Assembly (NCBI GenBank): GCA_977017645.1
Contig: OZ360219.1
Location: 120,156,001-120,220,000, forward strand
From: Torpedo marmorata
Lineage: Eukaryota
DNA length: 64,000 nt
Direction: 5' to 3'
Within the stretch, counting starts at the first letter, position 1. The number at the start of each line of letters is the position of its first letter. The notes below the pieces were generated by a model, which saw nothing but the letters and a program-made list of their open reading frames with translations, made no database searches and was not told where the DNA came from. Positions 24,861 through 46,920 of this stretch are shown here, piece after piece. Position numbers and translations under genes: made by a program.

Positions 24861-24974
24861 TTAGTGAACAGAAGATACACAATTTATTTTCAGTTTCCCA
24901 AGCACCTTTGAATATTTATTATTGAATTTGTCATCACAGCTTGTGACCGTGGCTTAATTCTTATTTCCTTCATG

Positions 24975-26538: not shown

Positions 26539-26658
26539 CTCATCGAGATCTTCCTCTGGAGTTACTGGTGTCCTATCAGTTGTACATGAAGCTAATGAAG
26601 AGGTTTCTGAATCTACTGATTCCTCATCAAATCCAAAAAATGTCTCTACAACATGCCT
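26539..26658 (-). CDS. JAKMIP1: JAKMIP1 coding exon, RHVVETFFGFDEESVDSETSSLASCTTDRTPVTPEEDLDE (candidate dual-coding 5' part)
   Basis: 120 nt, phase 0, tttcag/GTGAGT; VVETFFGFDEESVDSE and TDRTP.TPEEDLD motifs. Confidence 0.95.
26627..26658 (-). CDS. Candidate second coding segment of the microprotein, alternative frame of a JAKMIP1 exon, (E)ACCRDIFWI*
   Basis: G|AG GCA TGT TGT AGA GAC ATT TTT TGG ATT TGA when joined to the phase-1 donor at 37436. Confidence 0.6.
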
Positions 26659-27549
26659 CTGAAAGAGAAGGGAATAAAGCACAGAAAAAAATGTTTATTC
26701 ATTACCAAGGTACCTCTGATCTTCACCAATAACGTCACATACTCCTACAACTCTCCTTTGTGCACCAAACTCAGCATCAATTATATATTGCAGAGTAAGT
26801 AACCTCAGGTAATGTATCTCAATATTTAGTTCAGGAGCAGCAGTTAGGGGAGCTTTGTGATTTGATCGGAAAAACTTCTTCAGAAAGGAAAATTGCAGCA
26901 AGAAGACATTAAAATGGGTTTCACACCCCTCAACAATGAAGGGGTATGTTTTACGTGGTCTCTTTGAACAGTCCATTTGAGGAAGTGTTTTAAAAAGGTA
27001 GGGAACACCATAATGCAGAGGCTTTGATTAAAAATCACCCGAATTTGATTTCACTAACAGAAACCATGAAAGTGTCCAATCACTTTAGGAAAGAATTATT
27101 TTGAAAAAGATAATTTGTGTAAAGCCATTAAGTTAACCCTAAATAGAATGAATACATCAAAGTGGGTGTAAACAAGGAGTCTGCAGATGCTGGAGAATGA
27201 TAACAAAACACAAAAGTGCTGGAGGGACTCAGAGTCCATGGAAAGCAATCAGCAGTCGATCTTTCAGGCCTCAGCTCTTCATTAGGAATACCAAAAAATA
27301 GCTGAACAAGAAGGTAGGGTGGTGGTGGGTGGGGGTGGGATAGAGGAAAGGGAAAGGGAGCACAGACATAAGTGATAGGCAGGAGGTGGAAGAGGAGAAA
27401 GGAGCTGAGAGGTGATTGGGGAAAGGGGCAGAAAGCTGAGAAAGTTGCTGCACGAAATGTCAACTGCCTATTGCTTTCCATGGATGCTACGTAATACACT
27501 TTGTGTATTAGACTGAATACATAGTTTGAGGTTACACTGCACAAGGATT

Positions 27550-27812
27550 ATGTGTTTGCTACTTAATGGACTTTAAGTAAAGCATTCAACAAGGTCCCTC
27601 ATGATAGGCTAAACTAGAAGATTAAGACACACAGGATCCATGTTGACTTGGTAGATTGGATTCAAAATTGGCTTGGCCTTGTTTCTCTGACTGGAGGTCT
27701 TCAACCAGTGACCCACAGGATTCAGTGTAGGGATGTCTGTTCTTACTGTTATGTATATAAATGATTTGGATGAAAATATAGACAGGCTAATTAATAAGTT
27801 TGCAGTCTGTCC
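27550..27812 (+). mobile_element. CR1-type RT fragment
   Basis: KAFNKVPH, PQ.SV.G, YINDLD..KFA remnants. Confidence 0.65.
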
Positions 27813-29855
27813 AAATAAGTATAACACATGGTGTAAGGAAACTTGAAGGTGATAAAGTTCTCTTGACATCACTACTCCTACGCTTCTCCACGGGTGAGGT
27901 TTCAGCGTTGGTACATGCTTCAGCAATAAACCTGGAAAAGTGTTGCAGTGTTCCTTTAGTTGACACACTTTGTCGGCACAATTCACTGGAGGAATGTGAA
28001 CGTAGTTCACTGGGAGCAGTGCTGATCAAGAAGATTGATTTGTTGTGTTCAAGGGCTATGTGTTGATGTCAAGGTTAAACACAAGTCTTGACAGACAGCC
28101 ACAGCTAAAGACAAGAGAGTTAATTCATAATCTATGCCCTTTGACTTGAACCAGAGTGTAACAAGGGATGAGGTTGTTCAGTTTATCTCCAACGATTTTA
28201 ATAATTCCTTCCCCACAGAAAAAGTCGATGAAAGGACCAGTTCTTCACAAAGCTCCCAAATAATGAAATTCCATTGGCTCACAAGACCCCCGGAAGAACT
28301 CAAATGCAAGTTCAAAGCTCCAATTGACATACTGCTCCAGTCACTGTCAGATCTTTTAAAGTTTAAAACAGAGAAGCTAATTTGTCTTGAGGCAAATACA
28401 GTAACCTCTGATAACCTCAATCCACTTCAGTAAAATGAGAATTATTGGGAGCCATCATCAAACTCCAAAAGTCACCTCTGTTGACAGAGTGCGACACAAT
28501 CCGATCAGGTCGACCTGATAAGTGGACGTTTCTTTCCTTCATCCAACAGAGAAATAGTAGGATGAAAACTGATGGGAGATATTACACAAGAGTCACAGCT
28601 GGAGCAAGAAAGATCACAGCTTGATTCCATACATAAATTTTTGAATGTACTGACTAAATTGGACTCTGGAAAATGCATGGCATCAGTTTTCTTTTGCTTT
28701 ACATATTATCTGCATATATTTACATTTATTTTATTCTGTGAATGAAAAGCAAGAGGTAACTGCTGTTGGCTTGAATCCATTTTATTTCTGATGTACCATG
28801 AAAACTAATGTACAGCTTGAAGCAATAGAATTAAATAGTGTTTGTAGAAGTGAAAAGATATTTGTGACATGATGCATAAATCTCTCTTCCCAGACTACGG
28901 GGAGACCAGAGTACGGGCAATAATTACTCAATGCACCCCTTTCAGACCAAAGGCAATTTATCATTTTAGTTAATGCCAAGAAAGAAAAAAAGCACACCAA
29001 AAAAAGCAGACTTAGACTTCTATAAAATTACTAGAATGTATTTTCCCATCAAAGAATTGGAAATGATAAAATCAAAAGTAGTTTCCAGAATGGTGGTGAT
29101 TTCAGAAAATAAAAACTCTACATTAGATCAAGTTACAAACACATTTTGGATGATATTAAGCATCTATAATGCTCTCAGAGGTTCCAATAGCCATACAAAC
29201 TCCTAGGATTCTGCCACCCCACTCAGAGTGTGTTGGAGGCACATCAAGAATAATTAATGTGATCACTGGCTGCAGCTTTCTCCTACAAATCCCCTGAAAC
29301 TAACTTAGATGGTTTGTAGTACACAGTAGCCGACGAAAGTGTAAACAACGTAATTAAGATCAGTTCCGGATTTACATATGGGCTGAGCGGGCTGCAGCCC
29401 AGGGCCTCATAATCTAGGGGGGCCTCAGCCTCCCGCCAAAAAAAAATTAAAAATTTACCATTAATTTTATTTCATTTGTAACGATAAAAATCAGGGGCGT
29501 ACCTGGGCCAAAATAATGTGTAAGCACAAATCCAAAATTCAGGAACACATTGATGGGAGTGCCGAACGCACTCGCCCTTGATTTTACTATCTAGGCCCAG
29601 TTGCTTAGTAACATTAAACATGTATGTATAACAGTTACACAAGTTTTCACGCGGGATTTTCCCGCATGGCCGATTCTCAACTTGCGGGAATTCTGAATTC
29701 TTTGCAGGATTCCCGCAAGCCAATCGCGCATGCTGGCGAGAGCTTGGAGATTACTGTCTATCATTATAGCTTGCGTTTTGAGAACAAGTGAGGATTCTTT
29801 TATATCATTGTGAATCACAATAATACTTAATTTTGACTTTTTGTGAAAATAATAA

Positions 29856-32569
29856 TGAGTAAACGATATGAAAGTGGTGCTAGTAAACGAAAGCAACAAA
29901 AAGAACAGAAGGAAATACTGAAGCGTTTAAAGCCAATCACGTCATATGGCTTTGTACAGCAGACAGAAACAGCCCTAAATCCCTCAGATACAGAACATAC
30001 GTGTTTAAAAACAGAAGAAAATCAAGTAGACTACACTGAGCAGTCTGAGCAGACTGAAGAACAACCAGTTACACAACCTCCCAAGAACTTCAAGGAGAAC
30101 TGTTGTCAGTAACTACCACTACAAGTTCAAAAACTTCTGGAGAAAGTGACAATGAAGTGACAGGACCTGCAGCCAAAGAATTAACACAAGGCGCTGAAGG
30201 AACATGCCACGAGATAGTTCAAGGTCATTATCATTATCGTCTTAAAGACTTGGAAAACAAAGCAAATGAGCTCAGCGAAAACCCTAGCATTGCAGACACA
30301 AAAATACCAACTGTTCATGCTACTAGTGATTTCAGAGACAATAATGACGTAGGTTTATGGACCACATTGAATAACGAGGAAATATCATTCTGGATTGAGA
30401 AAGGTCCATCGGAATGTCAGCGCTGGGATGGACCTTTTACCAATTCGAAGCGAACATACGAAAACCAAGCCTGGTTCTGCTCAAAGAATTTATTTCATTC
30501 CACCAAAGTAAATGGAGAAAACTACCCTCGAGAATGGCTCGTGTATTCTCCCACAAAAGGAAAAGTCTACTGTTTTGTGTGCAAACTTTTCTCTAACCAA
30601 ACTACCTCAAATACAGCTTTAGTTTCTACTGGATTCGATGAATGGCATCACGCTTATCTTGTTCAAACCCACGAAAACTCTAAAAATCATATGAACTCTA
30701 TGCTAACATACTTAACAAGAAAGCGTGGTCAACCACTCACATCAAAACTCGAAGAGCAAATCAAAGCAGAGCAGGATTACTGGAGGCACGTACTTCAGCG
30801 AGTTATTGCAGTGATTTCCCTTTTGGCAGAACGTGGCTTGGCATTTAGGGGAGATGATGAAACATTTGGTTCATCAAACAATGATAACTTTCTTGGATTG
30901 CTTAAATTAATTGCCAAATTTGATCCCTTCCTGCATGCTCACATAAATCAGTATGGAAGTAAAGGCTCTGGTCAGCCATCATACTTATCCAAAACCGTAT
31001 GTGAAGAGGTTATCCAGTTGATGGCTAATAAAGTTCGAGAAGCAATACTGAGCGACATCAAACAGGCAGGTTATTTTAGTTTATCAGTCGATTCAACCCC
31101 TGATGTTTCCCACGTTGATCAACTTACTGTCATTGTTAGATATGTTTCTCCTAGTGATGGATTACCAGTTGAACGCTTTCTGAGGTTTTTGGAACTGAAA
31201 GATCACACTGGTGAAAGTCTGGCTAAGCAGATACTGAACTACTTCATTGAACTTGAAATTGATTTCAGTAAATGTAGAGGACAATCATATGACAATTCAG
31301 CCAATATGGCTGGAGAGTATAATGGCGTTCAACAAAAAATTCTGGAAAGGAACAAGTTTGAAAAGTTTATTCCATGCGCTGGACATTCCCTAAATCTAGT
31401 TGGACGAACAGCAGTTGACTCGTGCCTGGATGCAGTGAATTTTTTTGCCACAATAAATGAGCTCTCTTGAAAATATGGAGCCCATATATAAAAACTGTTG
31501 GTTTAAGGATTTGAAGATCTCTGGATATCAGATCTGACTGGCGAACCTATCTTCCACAATAAAATTAGTTTATAGTTGTTCTTTTTTAGATTGACATTCT
31601 CCTTACTCTATCTTTTTCTTTCTTTCTCTTTTTTATTTTAGTAGATTAGTAGGGGTGGGAGGATTAGGGAGAGGAGGGAGGGAGGGGGGTGAAAATGTAT
31701 CACATGTATTTTGATAATTTTGTATTTTATTTTATGTATTTTGTGATTTAAAATTTTTAAATAAAATATTTTTTTTAAATAAATTTAAAAAAAATAATAA
31801 ATGAGCTCTATTGTTTTTTCTCAGCTTCTACAAAAAGATGGGCAATGCTAAAAAATTTCTTGCCTCCAGAGTCAAAAGTTCCTAAACATTTATCAGACAC
31901 AAGATGGGAGGGTCACGCTAAAGCTACTGCAGCTATTAGCGAAAGTTATGCTAACATTGTTGAAGCCCTCAGTCATACTTACTGTGATGAAACTGAAAAA
32001 GGAGATACGAGACGACAGGCTGAAAATCTTCTGCAGAAAATGGAAGAATTTGAATTCATTTTCATGCTTCACCTTTGGACACATTTGCTCGACCAATTTC
32101 ATAAAGTTAGCAAGGGCCTCCAAAGTTCGCAAATTTCATTGAGCACATGTGCAAACATTTACAGCTCACTATTGCAGTTCGTATCAAACGCTCGGGCTAA
32201 TTTTGATGAAATTGAACAGCAAGCAAAAATTACTCTACCGGATGTTGAGTACAAAACTGTCAAAAGAAGGAAGAGAGTACGAAAAAAACAAAACAATGAT
32301 GGGACAGCACCCGAAGCCTTATGGACGAACTTTCTCCAAGAGACAGGTTTAGGGTAAATTCATTTATCCCTGTCATGGATGCTCTTGAAGCCAACCTAGA
32401 CAGAAGAGCAACAGTGTATAGGAGTGTAGCTGGCAATTTTTCATTTTAGGTGAACCTGCAGCCAACCAAGGAACAGATTCACAATGGTGTCGAGATGTTG
32501 ATGCATGAGTATCCAAAGGATGTTGACCTTAGTCTAGTCGATGATCTCTTGCACTTCCAACTGTTCTGA
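29856..32569 (+). pseudogene. Disrupted hAT transposase
   Basis: MSKRYESGASKRK start; WLVYS..CFVC zinc finger; LAFRG, SVDSTPD, GQSYDNSANM, CAGHSLNL and DTRW motifs; frameshifts near 30105 and 32320; insertion at 31466; no ERSFS-type C-terminus seen. Confidence 0.9.
31466..31795 (+). mobile_element. 5'-truncated L1/Tx1-like 3' end inserted in the transposase
   Basis: 14-bp TSD AATAAATGAGCTCT (31452-31465, 31796-31809); LKIWSPYI ORF2-like end, G-rich tract, AATAAA and A-rich tail. Confidence 0.85.
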
Positions 32570-34081
32570 CTTTGTATATAGTGTAATGTTGAAACATAGC
32601 TATGAATGTTCTGTGTGAACATCTTCATTAATTCCATACTTTTGTAAACTTATTAAAGGTTATAAATTTATAAACAATCTTTTTATCAATGCTAAAATTT
32701 CAGTAATGTTTTACTTTCAATGAGTAGATAAAGAAGAGAATGAAGTTTTGTTTCTCATGATCAGATGCTATTAAGTTTGGGCCTCCCAAGGTCTCTTAGC
32801 CCAGGGCCTCCAGTTCATTAATCTGGCTCTGATTAAGATTCAGTGCTAGACCAAAAAAATACAAAAAAAATTCCAATGCTAAATATTCCAATTTCTGTCT
32901 CATGCAAGTTTTGCAAAAAATTCATACATCAGACACAAGGCACCTTAATAAGGCCAAAACACAAGAAAAGCCAGATTCAATACTGGACCTGAAACTATAA
33001 TTGCCTGCAATTCTCCAGAACTAATAAGAAAAAAAAGGACTATCTGTTTTACAATAATTCCAACCTATTTCTTTGATTGAGCTCAGATTTAATTGGCAGG
33101 CTTTGACTTCAATGAGATTAAAAGTGAAGTGACATACAGAGGACTGCTGATTTATTTATCACTTGTTTAAACAGTGCAATAAAGTCAAAGCATGAGCTCA
33201 CAAGTCCAATCTTATCAGAAATAATCAGACAGCAATTGTTTTGATTAAAATATCTAACACATTGCCAGTTATTCTAACAACACTTTTTTGACTCTGATCA
33301 GAATTATGAAATATGTAAAACATTTGAGTAGCCTTAAATATACTCAGAGAACTTATGGGCAAATTGCAGAACATGCAGTTCGTAGAAAAATAAGGAAAAT
33401 CTTAAATCACTCATTAGATATCAGAGCTTATTTTTATATATCAGAATATAATTAAAGTTAATATTTCTTGCAATGTTCAATTTTTACCTCCAAAATGTAA
33501 AATACATATGTTCAATAATCACTTCTGTGGAGACAAAGACTGAATTTCTATAGACATATTCAAGATATGAATTATTGGAGTGTGAACAACCATCTGTAAA
33601 AATCATACATCAGTAAATATACGTCAAGGGACAAGACAGAGCAAGGAGGAAAAACTGACAATGCAAAACAAACAAAACAAGTCTCTGCTGAGTTATGTAG
33701 CTGGGATTTATCTCAGTGATGAGTTGAAGGAATTATAAGGCAGTACACAATTAGGGAGTTGCAACTAAAATCTCAACCATGTTCAGTGCCATACGCTTTA
33801 TTTTACATACAAAGGAGTTCTAAATTTTCCTTTGCAAAGAGAATACTTGATTGGAAAAAGAAAGGAGGGTGAGAACGACATTTCACAAAATAGGGCATAC
33901 CATAGTTTTATGTTAAAATGCATTTATAGGTTGTACATGACTATAGTAATATAGTTGTCTGTAAAATTAACCCAAAAATGCTGAATATATTGTCTTGACA
34001 TCTCGACATTTGCTACTGTAATAAAGTGTAAACTGATTTGCTCTCATTGAGCTGATATAACTCTACAGAATTCAGACAGAT

Positions 34082-34840
34082 TTAGATTTCAGATTTATTG
34101 TCTGAGTACATACACGACATCACATACAACCCTGAGATTCCTTTTTCCTGCGGGTGCGGCAGAATTACCACGAATTGATAGTGCAAAAAATAAACTGTAC
34201 ACAGCGAAAACATGTAAACAAATAAAAGAACTGTAAACAGATAACGAATGCAAACAAATTGACTGTGCAATACAGAGAGAACAAAAGAAAATCAATAAAG
34301 TGCACAAGTAAGAGTCCTTAAATGAGTTGGTCATTGAGGAATCTGATGGTGGAGGGGTAGCAGCTGTTTCTGAACCTGGTGGTGCGAGTCTTGTGGCACC
34401 TATACCTCTTTCCTGATGGCAGCAGCGAGAACAGAGTGTGTGCTGGGTGGTGTGGATCTTTGATGATTGCTGCTGCCCTCCGACGGCAGCGTTCCCTGTA
34501 GATGTACTCAATAGTGGGGAGGGTTTTCCCTGTGATGTCCTGGGCTGTGTCCATTATCTTTTGGAGGGCATTATGCTCAGGGGTATTGGTGTCCCCATAC
34601 CAGACTGTGATGCAGCCGGTCAGCACACTTTCCACCACACATCTGTAGAAATTTGCCAGGGTTTCTGGCGTCATACCAAACCTCCGCAACCTCCTGAGGA
34701 AGTAGAGGCGCTGACGTCCTTTCTTCACGATGCCATTGGTGTGTTGGGTCCAGGAAAGATCCTCCGAGATAGTGACTCCCAAGAATCTAAATTTGCTCAC
34801 CCTCTCCACCTCTGATCCCCCAATGATCACTGGATTGTAT
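34082..34840 (-). mobile_element. Rex1/Babar-type LINE 3' fragment
   Basis: ORF 34318..34830 FLGVTISEDLSW...RQRLYFLRRL...LLPSGKRYR; gacaataaatctgaaatct tail. Confidence 0.9.
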
Positions 34841-34949
34841 ACAAGTTAGTGAGTCATATAAAAGGATCAATAATTATAATGATAATATTGAATTTTAGTA
34901 GTTTATAACTTTTTGATTAATGATGTACTTTTTCCCAACAAGATGATCC

Positions 34950-35232
34950 GGGCGGCATAGTTGGCATAACGGTTAGCGCAACGCCTTTACAGCGCCAATG
35001 ATCGGAATCGGGATTCGAATCCCGCGCTGTCTGTAAGGAATTTGTACGTTCTCCATGTGTCCGCGTGGGTTTTCCCCGGGGGCTCCGGTTTCCTCCCACC
35101 ATCCGAAACGTTCCGGGGGTTGTAGGTTAATTGGGTGTAATTGGGTGGCACGGGCTCATGGGCCAAAAGGGCTTGTTACCGTGCTGTATGTGTAAATTTT
35201 TTAAAAATACATTTAAATTTTTTTAAAATTTA
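34950..35232 (+). mobile_element. tRNA-derived SINE
   Basis: B-box-like ggattcgaatccc; tttaaaaattt tail. Confidence 0.85.
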
Positions 35233-35699
35233 AGAATAGGTGCAACATACTGATTGTCATTAATCTAATTTTAATTGTTTGGACATCAGCATAATACACT
35301 CTGGTGTTTGGGTTGTAAGATAGATTTTGCAGGTGTTGAGTGATATCGCTACTAAAAATGGAGACATCCAATGTCAACAATAAGTGTTAATTCGTATAAG
35401 TAAATACATTTAATAAGGCTGCCTCTATTGCTTCAGTGGGCAGATAATTCCACAGATTCACTACTCTCTGGGAGCAACCCCTCTTTATCTCTATCTTGAA
35501 TCTATTCCCCCAAATCTTGGAGCTATGTCCCCAGTTCTAGTCTCACTTGCTAGTGGAAACAAGTTTCCTGCCTCTATCTTATCTATCCCTTTCATAATCT
35601 TACACATTTCTACAAGAACCCCACTAACCCCCATCATATCATTTCTCTAAGATATGTTCTCAAGTCTGAGAGTGTGATTAAAAATACGATGGGGTAAAC

Positions 35700-35987
35700 T
35701 TAAATTTATTTTTAAAAATTTTTTTAAATTTTAAATGTAGACATACAGCACGGTAACAGGCCCTTTTGGCCCACGAGCCCGTGCCACCCAATTACACCCA
35801 ATTGACCTACAACCCCCAGTACGCTTTGAACGGTGGGAGGAAACCGGAGCACCCGGAGGAACCCCACGCAGACACGGGGAGAACGAACAAACTCCTCCCT
35901 ACAGACAGTGCGGGATTCGAACCCCGGTCCCAATCGTTCGTGCTGTAACAGCGTTGTGCTAACCACTATGCTAACCGTGACGTCCCC
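35700..35987 (-). mobile_element. tRNA-derived SINE, inverted relative to the 34950 copy
   Basis: Minus-strand ggttcgaatccc B-box, same body and tail. Confidence 0.85.
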
Positions 35988-37435
35988 AAAGTATGAACCT
36001 CAGTAACAGAACTCTCATTTCTCATATCAGCAATGAGTTAGATAGCCTGTTTAGATTTTAGAAATCCAACTCACTAAAATACAGATTGTAAAGGCACAAA
36101 TGGAAGTTACGCAACTTTGATTTATAATGCTCTTAAACCAGAAGTGGAATCTCTTACGGTAGACAAAAATTAAAGAATTTCATGTATGTTACATTCTAAA
36201 TGTATTATTACGTGACAATAATGGAACCTTTACCTTTACCAAATATGTGCAGGGCAAATATACCTCTGGCTAACCTAATTTGCACGGCATTGGATTTCAG
36301 CAGGCAGCAGATGAAAGGAATCACATCCCATTGATCTAAAACCAGGTTAGGTCTACATGTCAGAAGCAAAAAGCTGAGGTTTTTTTTCTGAGAATTTCAA
36401 AGGCTTTGAGCTCAGGCTGACAGTATCAGCATTCATAGAATTACCGGTAATTTAGGACTTGGACTCGATCAACATAGCAATTCACAAAATGCTTTAATAA
36501 TTAAAGGTCATGCCGTTTGCCAAAAAGCATAAATACAGGACTTTGTACCCACAATTGAACAGACAGGAATATTTGGTTACTTATGCATAGTTCACATCAG
36601 TACCCAGAGGAGAAAAGCTATTAAATAATACAGGGTCCCAGCTGTTCTGATGGAGTTTGGCAGTGACAGGACTTTTAGATGTTAACTTGAGCATTACTTG
36701 AAAGTCTACCTGACCTAAGAGGTCATGTCCCCACACAAGCACAACTACCAATAGGAATAATGATTTTTCTAGTTGAAGTTTAAATCCATCCATAAAAAGA
36801 ACCTGACAGAGGGCATATTTGAGTGTAATGAAATTACCTAGTCCACGAGCAATGCCATTCATTAAATCATTTTCCTTCAACTGTACATCAATCACTCAGC
36901 ATTCTTATTCTACTAGTTAATTTCAGACAAGATTAGCACTTCTAAGCAGAAGTTCAATGAGATGCATGTTTTTTTTAAATTGTCTATATTGCCTGTATTA
37001 AATTCAAATACTGCTCTGTGGATATCGCAGGAGATTTTCATTCATGTCAAATCAGATGAAAAAGCTTATTTCCGTTTGTCATTTTCAAGGTGTTACTTCC
37101 TCTATGATTATATTGGTTCTTTTACTTTTAATTCCTTTTTACCTCATGTATTTCAGCAAACAAAGCATAACTGTGCTGCTGGTACTGCACTTAACACAAA
37201 AAAAACAAATAAAAGATACTTTAAACACATTCTGATTCAGAATAGTATTCTTACTATCCTCCAAATGAGATATTTATATTTAAAATAAAGAATGCAACAG
37301 AAAATACTATCTCACAGAAGTTAGTAACAATTGCACAGAAAAGCTCTGTTGGGTTTGTACAATCAATTCAAAAACGATGTCCCATGTTACTCAATGAAAA
37401 GAACATGTTCTCATTTCCTTGAAGGGCTATCTTAC

Positions 37436-37541
37436 CTTCATGCTTGTAAGTCATTTCTTGGCAACCAGAGAGATAAAGGCAAACCAAAGCACACAAACAG
37501 ATGAAACAGAAAAAACACAAAACTATCAGCAAATATTCCAT
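37436..37541 (-). CDS. Candidate first coding exon of a nested Cys-rich membrane microprotein, MEYLLIVLCFFCFICLCALVCLYLSGCQEMTYKHE
   Basis: ATG in aaaATGG context; ~21-residue hydrophobic stretch; consensus donor AAG|GTAAGA at 37435; 106 nt (phase 1). Confidence 0.7.
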
Positions 37542-37779
37542 TTTAAAGTTTGATATACTTTGCAAGGTCTCTATTATAGAGACAATATTCCCCCGACATT
37601 AATAAGAGGAAGATTGAAAAACAACAATTATTATCTGATGTACAATAAAGAGGGTGGGGCAAAATGACTGGTTCTCTCTCGCTGTTAATATCAATGTAAA
37701 AATCTTCAGCTGTCTTCTTCGTCCCTGCTTTGGGGCTGCTTGCTTCAGACTGAGAACCCAGGAAGTAGAAGCATGCATT

Positions 37780-37945
37780 TACAATGCCAATACTACTCAA
37801 GGCTTTCATGAAACGCCCTATTGGCTCTTGGGTCTGCTGGCTCCTCCTCCCGTTTCACAGCATCATCGGCACTGCTGATTTTGTGCAATGAGATTCTCAT
37901 CGTAAGCCAATTTCCCACACACCACTCCAGTGAATTGGAGCAGCC
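37780..37945 (-). promoter_or_regulatory. Putative internal promoter
   Basis: Four CCAAT/ATTGG boxes (37787, 37820, 37907, 37934) and a GGAGGAGGAG tract in non-repetitive, GC-enriched DNA 250-400 nt upstream of the microprotein ATG. Confidence 0.45.
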
Positions 37946-38479
37946 AGCTCTATGATGTGAATGGTAATGTGGAGATTATAACATAAATTTATCTTTCAAG
38001 ACAGAAAGGAGGCATCAAATTTTCATATGGTTTTAACCACTTTTAGTAACTTAAAAGGAAAAATAATCCGAGGCACAAAAATCTACAGAAAAAATGTTAA
38101 AGAAATAAAGTGAAAATGAACTAGAAATTTCAACAGCCATTATAAAAAAGAAATGGTGTAGTGGTGTACAGAACCAGGAAACGTACACGGCCATAAAGAA
38201 TTGACTAAAATAAGCTTCAAGATAATGATTGTGAAATGACAGCAATGTAAAGCAATCACTTTGCTTGAATGCCCATCAGGGGGACTGTGGCATTAGAAGA
38301 ATAGATTAGAAAACTATAACACTGGACTTCTGTCCAAATTGACCATTTCTTAAGCCCAGAGTTCCCAACTGCGAACTTTTGCAAGTCAGCCAGCTCCCAG
38401 CAGCATGTGGCCTGAGTGCAGTGCAAGGCCTTTACGGCAGTAAAAAACTGAATTGCTGCAACATCTGGTCAAAAGTGGA

Positions 38480-44876: not shown

Positions 44877-44936
44877 CTTGTGGGGCTTTGTGTTTCTCCT
44901 TTTGTATTTCTTAGAGCGTAAATATCTCTCCCTCTC
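44877..44936 (-). CDS. JAKMIP1: JAKMIP1 coding exon, ERERYLRSKKYKRRNTKPHK
   Basis: 60 nt, phase 0, ctgtag acceptor and GTAAAA donor; basic exon resembling ERERLLRSKRHRGKSLKPPK. Confidence 0.9.
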
Positions 44937-46779: not shown

Positions 46780-46920
46780 CATTGTTAAATCGTCAATGAT
46801 ATGCTGTTGCTCTACAACCTGGAGTCTCAAGAACTCTATTTCTTGTTCATCTTGCCCTTGGCTCAGATCATTCAATGAAGTATGTCGTCTGAGTAGTCCT
46901 TGAGAAGATAACTTTTCTTT
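46780..46920 (-). CDS. JAKMIP1: JAKMIP1 coding exon, KEKLSSQGLLRRHTSLNDLSQGQDEQEIEFLRLQVVEQQHIIDDLTM
   Basis: 141 nt, phase 0, cag/GTGAGA; RHTSLNDLS and EIEFLRLQV.EQQ motifs. Confidence 0.95.

Follow-up and report, generated by a model that had tools for sequence, protein, structure and literature searches.

Does an intron of the brain gene JAKMIP1 house a second gene, one that starts at its own ATG and finishes by reading a coding exon of its host in a different frame? The question was raised by the first-pass annotation of a 64,000-nt window of the Torpedo marmorata genome (contig OZ360219.1), which proposed a nested, cysteine-rich membrane microprotein; all positions given below refer to this window, in which the microprotein and the JAKMIP1 features lie on the minus strand. 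The gene structure, an intronic first exon joined in phase 1 to a JAKMIP1 exon, is almost certainly real, and its product is very probably a translated membrane protein. The feature is the orthologue of human AC092442.1 (ENSG00000284684) and is known as annotation, not new. The lamprey and cartilaginous-fish cases, the test for double constraint, and the recognition of wrong tails in the databases appear to be new contributions.

Structure of the intronic first exon and its prior annotation

Every element of the proposed transcript was re-derived from the sequence. The ATG at 37541 stands in an AAA-ATG-G context, and 106 coding nt run from it to the donor AAG|GTAAGA after 37436, the phase of which is 1. 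Joining to the acceptor tttcag|AGG at 26658 yields a product of 45 aa with the tail EACCRDIFWI and a TGA that ends at 26627. The receiving exon (26658-26539) matches JAKMIP_CC3 (Pfam PF16034, E 2.9e-11), and the lengths of all JAKMIP1 host exons checked (7/7) are multiples of three, in agreement with the phase 0 ascribed to them earlier. The location in unique DNA within an 18-kb intron was likewise borne out: the host intron (44876-26659) measures 18,218 nt, and the DNA from 37300 to 38300 has one match in the 6.2-Gb genome. The exon itself has a single best genome copy; one of its two matches is real, and the other (L002) was rejected as a chance hit, with an E value of 1.09 and an internal stop.

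Three of the 16 candidates in a phase-1 scan reached a hydropathy of 1.6, and two of these start at ATG 37541. The third, at about 34334, sits at the end of a piece resembling a long interspersed nuclear element (LINE), and ATG 37541 is alone in unique DNA. The exon is more than a chance reading frame, because it is the only strong hydrophobic phase-1 candidate in unique DNA and is conserved vertebrate-wide.

The uncharacterised small open reading frames (ORFs) that the first-pass annotation tentatively mentioned at this locus in other vertebrates have entries in GENCODE and RefSeq. Row 21 of Supplemental Data S2 of Mudge et al. 2019 lists AC092442.1 (ENSG00000284684, ENST00000636216) with 45 aa and two coding exons, notes its conservation in vertebrates, and names mouse ENSMUSG00000113373 and zebrafish OTTDARG00000044229 (PMC6886504). 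[quoted passage not shown] Host gene, product length, two coding exons, alternative first exon, and out-of-frame exon-2 overlap are all shared with the T. marmorata gene, whereas in the latter the intron is longer, the N-terminal half of the helix carries two additional Cys, and residue 40 is R instead of G. The two products are identical at 37 of 45 residues (82%, counted by eye). C4orf50 was considered as an identity and rejected, the 2019 tables listing its exons separately, 3' of AC092442.1 (PMC6886504). The RefSeq models named "uncharacterized LOC128125818 homolog" probably represent the same gene, and the name can be tied to the Ensembl gene because the first 35 residues of the ape models are identical. 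No paper naming LOC128125818, AC092442.1, the Ensembl or clone identifiers, or the peptide words was found in main texts, although subscription journals and the supplements of ribosome-profiling or proteomics papers, PMC13577902 among them, may contain a mention; two supplements of PMC10152738 likewise gave nothing.

Conservation of the peptide and constraint on the shared exon

A 40-residue query returned 22 candidates, all of them relatives (22/22; shark, reptiles, birds, marsupials, and placentals) at 74-89% identity, the closest protein match being a basking shark model (89%). A search among representatives retrieved 38 proteins at E <= 0.001, including frog, pipefish, and lamprey models. 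The ATG is kept at position 1 in the relatives and lies one codon earlier in two fish loci described below. In the alignment, identity extends through residue 35 and is followed by Gly and then by unrelated tails; conservation ends at the donor. The spliced form itself is found in the lamprey Petromyzon marinus, whose RefSeq model XP_075922499.1 has 45 aa and the tail EAGCGDIFWV, with 29/45 residues (64%) identical to the T. marmorata product and 7/10 in the spliced tail. A metagenome scan of 90 candidate stretches yielded two further loci, L022 and L023, which appear fish-like from the resemblance of their peptides to the pipefish model. Each contains the exon, the donor G|GTAAGG, and the JAKMIP1 exon, separated by introns that measure 385 nt in L022 and 371 nt in L023, and the join gives EACCGDIFWI plus a stop, in agreement with the tail of the human GENCODE entry (PMC6886504).

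Nearly all of the RefSeq "LOC128125818 homolog" models (P0002-P0061) read through the donor into unrelated tails. Among 101 relatives, a redundant set that includes T. marmorata's own read-through, Gly follows the conserved core in 94, and 91 continue G-K/E/R/T/M/N. This is the continuation given by read-through of G|GT plus a purine, so most database models are unspliced; the lamprey model alone carries the spliced tail. The ape models are read-throughs that reach 45 aa by coincidence, with a tail unlike the human GENCODE tail. Taken at face value, the Gly in 94/101 relatives, the solitary spliced tail, and the 45-aa ape read-throughs would suit a free-standing single-exon gene that runs through the donor, as most RefSeq models have it. 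However, the read-through tails are unrelated and range from 1 to more than 100 residues, 91/101 are what the donor sequence would give, and the JAKMIP1 codons downstream would be under no constraint from such a gene, which makes this alternative very improbable. Three long, bacterial-looking proteins in the microprotein's 90% clusters (P0035, P0058, P0101) were rejected as relatives, two being unrelated by sequence and the third named RidA; such cluster members are a database artefact.

The mammalian ab initio models, together with the exon map, place the first exon in the JAKMIP1 intron preceding the first CC3-domain exon. Four of these JAKMIP1 models (squirrel, desman, pangolin, and camel) put it directly before the same JAKMIP1 exon, and these fusions could be taken to mean that the exon serves as a membrane anchor for JAKMIP1, N-terminal or internal and in frame; T. 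marmorata also has an in-frame AG 13 nt into the shared exon. Yet the four fusions use four different linkers, the internal AG needs a GTA codon, for which both fish have GTG, and the fish introns offer only weak, unshared in-frame AGs, so that an anchor of this kind is extremely improbable.

The peptide is under purifying selection. Between T. marmorata and the two fish loci, exon 1 has 25 differing codons, of which 17 are synonymous and eight non-synonymous, with 23 of the 35 base differences at third positions; between L022 and L023 there are seven synonymous and no non-synonymous codon differences. This predominance of synonymous change indicates selection on the peptide. It also bears on the proposal that the ORF is regulatory, its translation leading to nonsense-mediated decay (NMD) or to re-initiation on a C-terminal JAKMIP1 fragment, with the peptide as a by-product. 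Between the stop and the next junction there are 88 nt, past the 50-nt rule (PMC12776119), GENCODE calls the RNA cotranscribed with JAKMIP1 (PMC6886504), and the RNA is scarce. Against this, selection at the amino acid level from lamprey to human, with free synonymous change in exon 1, would be unexpected, and the first in-frame JAKMIP1 Met occurs four exons downstream, in the exon at 9429-9331; a purely regulatory ORF is therefore a rather remote prospect. The 50-nt rule would predict NMD, from which, however, stops that come within ~200 nt of the start of an ORF tend to be spared (PMC12776119), and the microprotein mRNA would likely escape because its ORF is only 138 nt, despite the position of its stop. 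Early polyadenylation would be another way for it to avoid NMD. Three AATAAA words occur at 24920, 24888, and 24835 on the minus strand, 1.6-1.7 kb past the shared exon; the microprotein RNA could be polyadenylated early there, unless the words are chance occurrences.

The shared exon is selected in both frames. Synonymous constraint on the 11 shared codons, the check suggested at the outset, was assessed against the two fish loci, a small and related sample in which three extra fish codons were removed for alignment. In the overlap, one of ten same-residue JAKMIP1 codons differs between T. marmorata and the fish, compared with 13/22 in the rest of the exon against L022 (one-sided Fisher p=0.011) and 13/20 against L023 (p=0.006). 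JAKMIP2 of the same genome, the sole control for splice-site proximity, differs from JAKMIP1 at 6/10 codons in the overlap and 11/22 in the rest; since it shows no suppression, the start of the exon is not frozen in general. One overlap difference, TTT/TAT, changes F to Y in JAKMIP1 and is silent in the microprotein. The case for double constraint is tempered by the other, GTA/GTG, which is silent in JAKMIP1 and an R/G change in the microprotein, by its reliance on two related fish, and by the possibility that proximity to a splice site also lowers synonymous change. Persistence of the TGA, proposed as a further check, was observed in the fish loci but is uninformative alone, and it was set aside as proof of dual coding: a TGA occupies the equivalent position in the JAKMIP2 exon and in that of JAKMIP3.

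At CDKN2A, an alternative first exon bearing an ATG of its own is spliced to a shared exon that p16 and ARF read in different frames, and the locus was originally likened to this case. The dual coding implied by the likeness is supported by the GENCODE structure, the lamprey RefSeq model, and the synonymous constraint. As there, an exon common to two transcripts is read in a second frame and the product is unrelated, and the ATG here would lie in a putative private first exon. Unlike CDKN2A/ARF, however, the overlap here spans 11 codons, the protein comes almost entirely from the private exon, the first exon lies within the coding region of the host, and the product is a predicted one, so that the likeness holds for the layout only. 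The coordinates of the features are collected in Table 1.

Table 1. Features of the microprotein gene and its JAKMIP1 host in the window
Feature	Position	Strand	Details and basis
Alternative first exon, coding part	37436..37541	-	35 codons + 1 nt, encoding microprotein residues 1-35
Predicted transmembrane helix, residues 4-24	37470..37532	-	Kyte-Doolittle, conservation table, AlphaFold2 lamprey model
Splice donor GTAAGA, phase 1	37430..37435	-	Sequence; G|GTAAGG at the equivalent site in L022 and L023
Microprotein-transcript intron, 10,777 nt	26659..37435	-	Predicted join 37436 -> 26658
Dual-coded stretch, residues 36-45 and stop, over the exon's initial 11 JAKMIP1 codons	26627..26658	-	Translation, synonymous constraint
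Shared JAKMIP1 exon, 120 nt, phase 0-0	26539..26658	-	Pfam JAKMIP_CC3; tblastn with squirrel JAKMIP1 model
Preceding JAKMIP1 exon, 5' boundary of host intron	44877..44936	-	Exon map
Two CCAAT-box-like words, candidate promoter only	37820..37911	.	285 and 370 nt 5' of the ATG

The predicted membrane protein and its possible role

The peptide has one hydrophobic run, residues 4-24, with a 19-residue Kyte-Doolittle maximum of 3.31. A single-sequence AlphaFold2 model of the lamprey orthologue places a helix at residues 3-30, with a predicted local distance difference test (pLDDT) score of 87-88 at residues 1-20 and a low-confidence tail; hydropathy and model thus both predict one helix of membrane length. 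In its N-terminal half, hydrophobic residues can replace one another, and at positions 13-34 there are 15 residues invariant in 47 distinct exon-1 peptides, spread over all helix angles. The eight cysteines reported earlier, including a CC pair, are present in T. marmorata (C9, C12, C15, C17, C21, C27, C38, C39) but are not general to the family: C17, C21, and C27 are invariant in the 47 peptides, while C9 and C12 each occur in 2/47.

With some reserve, we favour a role in olfactory neurons, where the microprotein would be palmitoylated, span the membrane once, and serve a larger membrane protein as an accessory subunit. Brain and testis had been suggested as places to look for the transcript; published RNA support points instead to olfactory tissue, not to brain or testis in general, being confined in the 2019 table to olfactory tissue of mouse and zebrafish, the latter through olfactory expressed sequence tags (PMC6886504). 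An internal promoter would fire in olfactory neurons, and the 45-mer would be the first ORF of the resulting RNA. The helix would insert N-out/C-in, and C21/C27 and C38/C39 would be palmitoylated, so that modified Cys would sit both in the tail and where the helix leaves the membrane. The half of the helix whose every face is invariant would pack against the partner protein, and it can be read as buried against protein because of this invariance at all helix angles. The hydrophobic C-terminus, F-W-I/V, may act as a signal of the PDZ type or for export from the endoplasmic reticulum, both of which are known classes of C-terminal motif. KCNE, FXYD, the regulins of the phospholamban/sarcolipin type, MRAP, and RTP are single-pass accessory microproteins, which the 45-mer resembles in its size, short N-terminus, one conserved helix, juxtamembrane Cys, and short tail; it differs from them in having no sequence relationship to any, and the comparison is one of analogy, not membership.

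The all-face invariance of the second half of the helix fits self-packing equally well, and the several membrane Cys could cross-link copies, as might be expected of a self-assembling oligomer, whether it forms a pore or acts as a phospholamban-like reservoir, or of a palmitoylated organiser of membrane domains with no fixed large partner. Residues 4-24, however, contain no strongly polar or charged residue to line a pore, no curated family is matched at its cut-off, and such an assembly seems unlikely. A homodimer prediction for lamprey residues 1-35, made without an alignment, scored 0.06 against a mark of 0.32 and weighs neither way. The hydrophobic run could alternatively form part of a signal peptide (residues 1-27) cut after S-G-C, with an 18-residue disulfide-bearing peptide secreted. 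Small residues at -3 and -1 are the signal-peptidase pattern; here they are S25 and C27, the run begins at residue 4, and residues 28-45 are strongly conserved. On the other side, the n-region is not basic, the h-region has 21 residues, Q28 is K in 2/47 peptides, and F13-C27 is nearly invariant, which typical vertebrate signal peptides are not; secretion is accordingly quite unlikely.

Several observations count against the accessory-subunit reading. No Pfam family was matched at its curated cut-off, KCNE, FXYD, regulin, MRAP, and CYSTM included, nor did any of seven orthologues (0/7) match a family; the best match of the T. marmorata peptide was ISK_Channel, with an E value of 0.12 and a score of 12.6 bits where the cut-off is 22.1. 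Searches of the PDB by sequence (0 matches) and by Foldseek (0), and of the ESM Atlas (no usable match), gave no pointer to a partner. The flanking charges, two K/R against four D/E after residue 24, leave the topology unfixed, and the lamprey tail carries one of the two tail Cys. No O/E (EBF) site, exact or with one mismatch, was found in 1.5 kb upstream of the exon or upstream in the fish loci, and T. marmorata and the fish have no upstream block in common beyond simple repeats. In the 2019 table, human CAGE (cap analysis of gene expression) support is none and junction support minimal, mouse support consists of a weak CAGE signal in olfactory brain plus a single cDNA obtained from olfactory sensory neurons, and the peptide-support cell is empty, with sorfs.org given as "no" (PMC6886504). 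On the supporting side, Jakmip1 is among 58 genes cloned as coexpressed with Rtp1 in the olfactory lineage and, by eye in Table 2, has the sixth lowest log1p deviation from Rtp1, but it is mid-ranked under the normalised metric (PMC12677133). The microprotein RNA could contribute to the gene-level Jakmip1 signal, which normal neuronal JAKMIP1 would account for just as well.

In a bolder version of the accessory-subunit reading, the 45-mer would occur throughout vertebrates, be specific to olfactory neurons, and assist there in the trafficking of odorant receptors or in transduction; it would antedate the split of lampreys from jawed vertebrates, and the Rtp1-tracking Jakmip1 signal would belong to it. 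This is speculative and rather unlikely. Most odorant receptors fail to reach the surface of non-olfactory cells (PMC12677133), and an olfactory accessory subunit, if real, would bear on this delivery problem. It would have stayed hidden so far because its reads were counted as "Jakmip1", and a screen cloning the annotated JAKMIP1 ORF would miss the 45-mer. That study mentions Jakmip1 once, with no indication of the isoform cloned, and names Gfy, Clgn, Syt1, and Syt5 as active (PMC12677133).

Origin, implications, and sequence context

The microprotein may predate the JAKMIP duplications. This is suggested by the JAKMIP3 exon (L005:1500-1532, G000:C52), whose second frame reads EASCGDFFWV, resembling the lamprey tail at 8/10 residues and stopping at the equivalent position. 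A rough post hoc estimate based on local codon usage puts the chance of such a match at p 0.012; the JAKMIP2 exon, read likewise, resembles the lamprey tail at 3/10. At the second tail residue, the lamprey host codon pattern appears nearer JAKMIP3 than JAKMIP1. No sister exon came to light: a profile of 100 exon-1 peptides, run over the 80 kb surrounding each of JAKMIP2 and JAKMIP3, picked up nothing but the exon in the window (the match ranked after it having E 0.17), and relaxed ATG-to-donor scans around the two genes gave no similar peptide.

The identities of 64% to lamprey and 82% to human suggest that the 45-mer is likely important, and its structure has practical consequences. Most database models have a wrong C-terminus, and proteomics searches or clones that start from them would fail to capture the true tail. 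Within the 11 codons that open the shared exon, a change that leaves JAKMIP1 unaltered can be missense or stop-loss for the microprotein. Where knock-outs of JAKMIP1 or its read counts draw on downstream exons, two genes are combined.

Upstream of the exon, the words at 37820-37911, which we take to be CCAAT-box-like on a motif scan run without a shuffle control, were not seen upstream in L022 or L023. AGs at -93, -208, and -408 could make the T. marmorata exon internal, whereas GENCODE calls it a first exon. A T-rich run with an AG 7 nt before the ATG, a possible acceptor, occurs in both fish loci (L022:870-893 and L023:712-735), and the fish exon may have an upstream non-coding exon. About 700 nt 5' of the ATG, L022:182-280 and L023:1-100 are well kept between the fish by eye, with no T. 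marmorata counterpart.

The intron of the microprotein transcript contains the LINE-like piece and a broken, transposase-like region with DUF4371 (E 2e-22), at 29837-32354 on the plus strand, presumably a remnant of a hAT-type transposon; its position inside the intron explains part of the 10.8-kb length. Within the host, the JAKMIP1 exon beginning at 46920 ends one codon later than first mapped, at 46780. In the microprotein exon, T. marmorata departs from three near-invariant residues at 37470-37515 on the minus strand, Y9C, S11F, and F24L (Y in 45/47, S in 45/47, and F in 46/47 peptides), possibly through a relaxation specific to its lineage.

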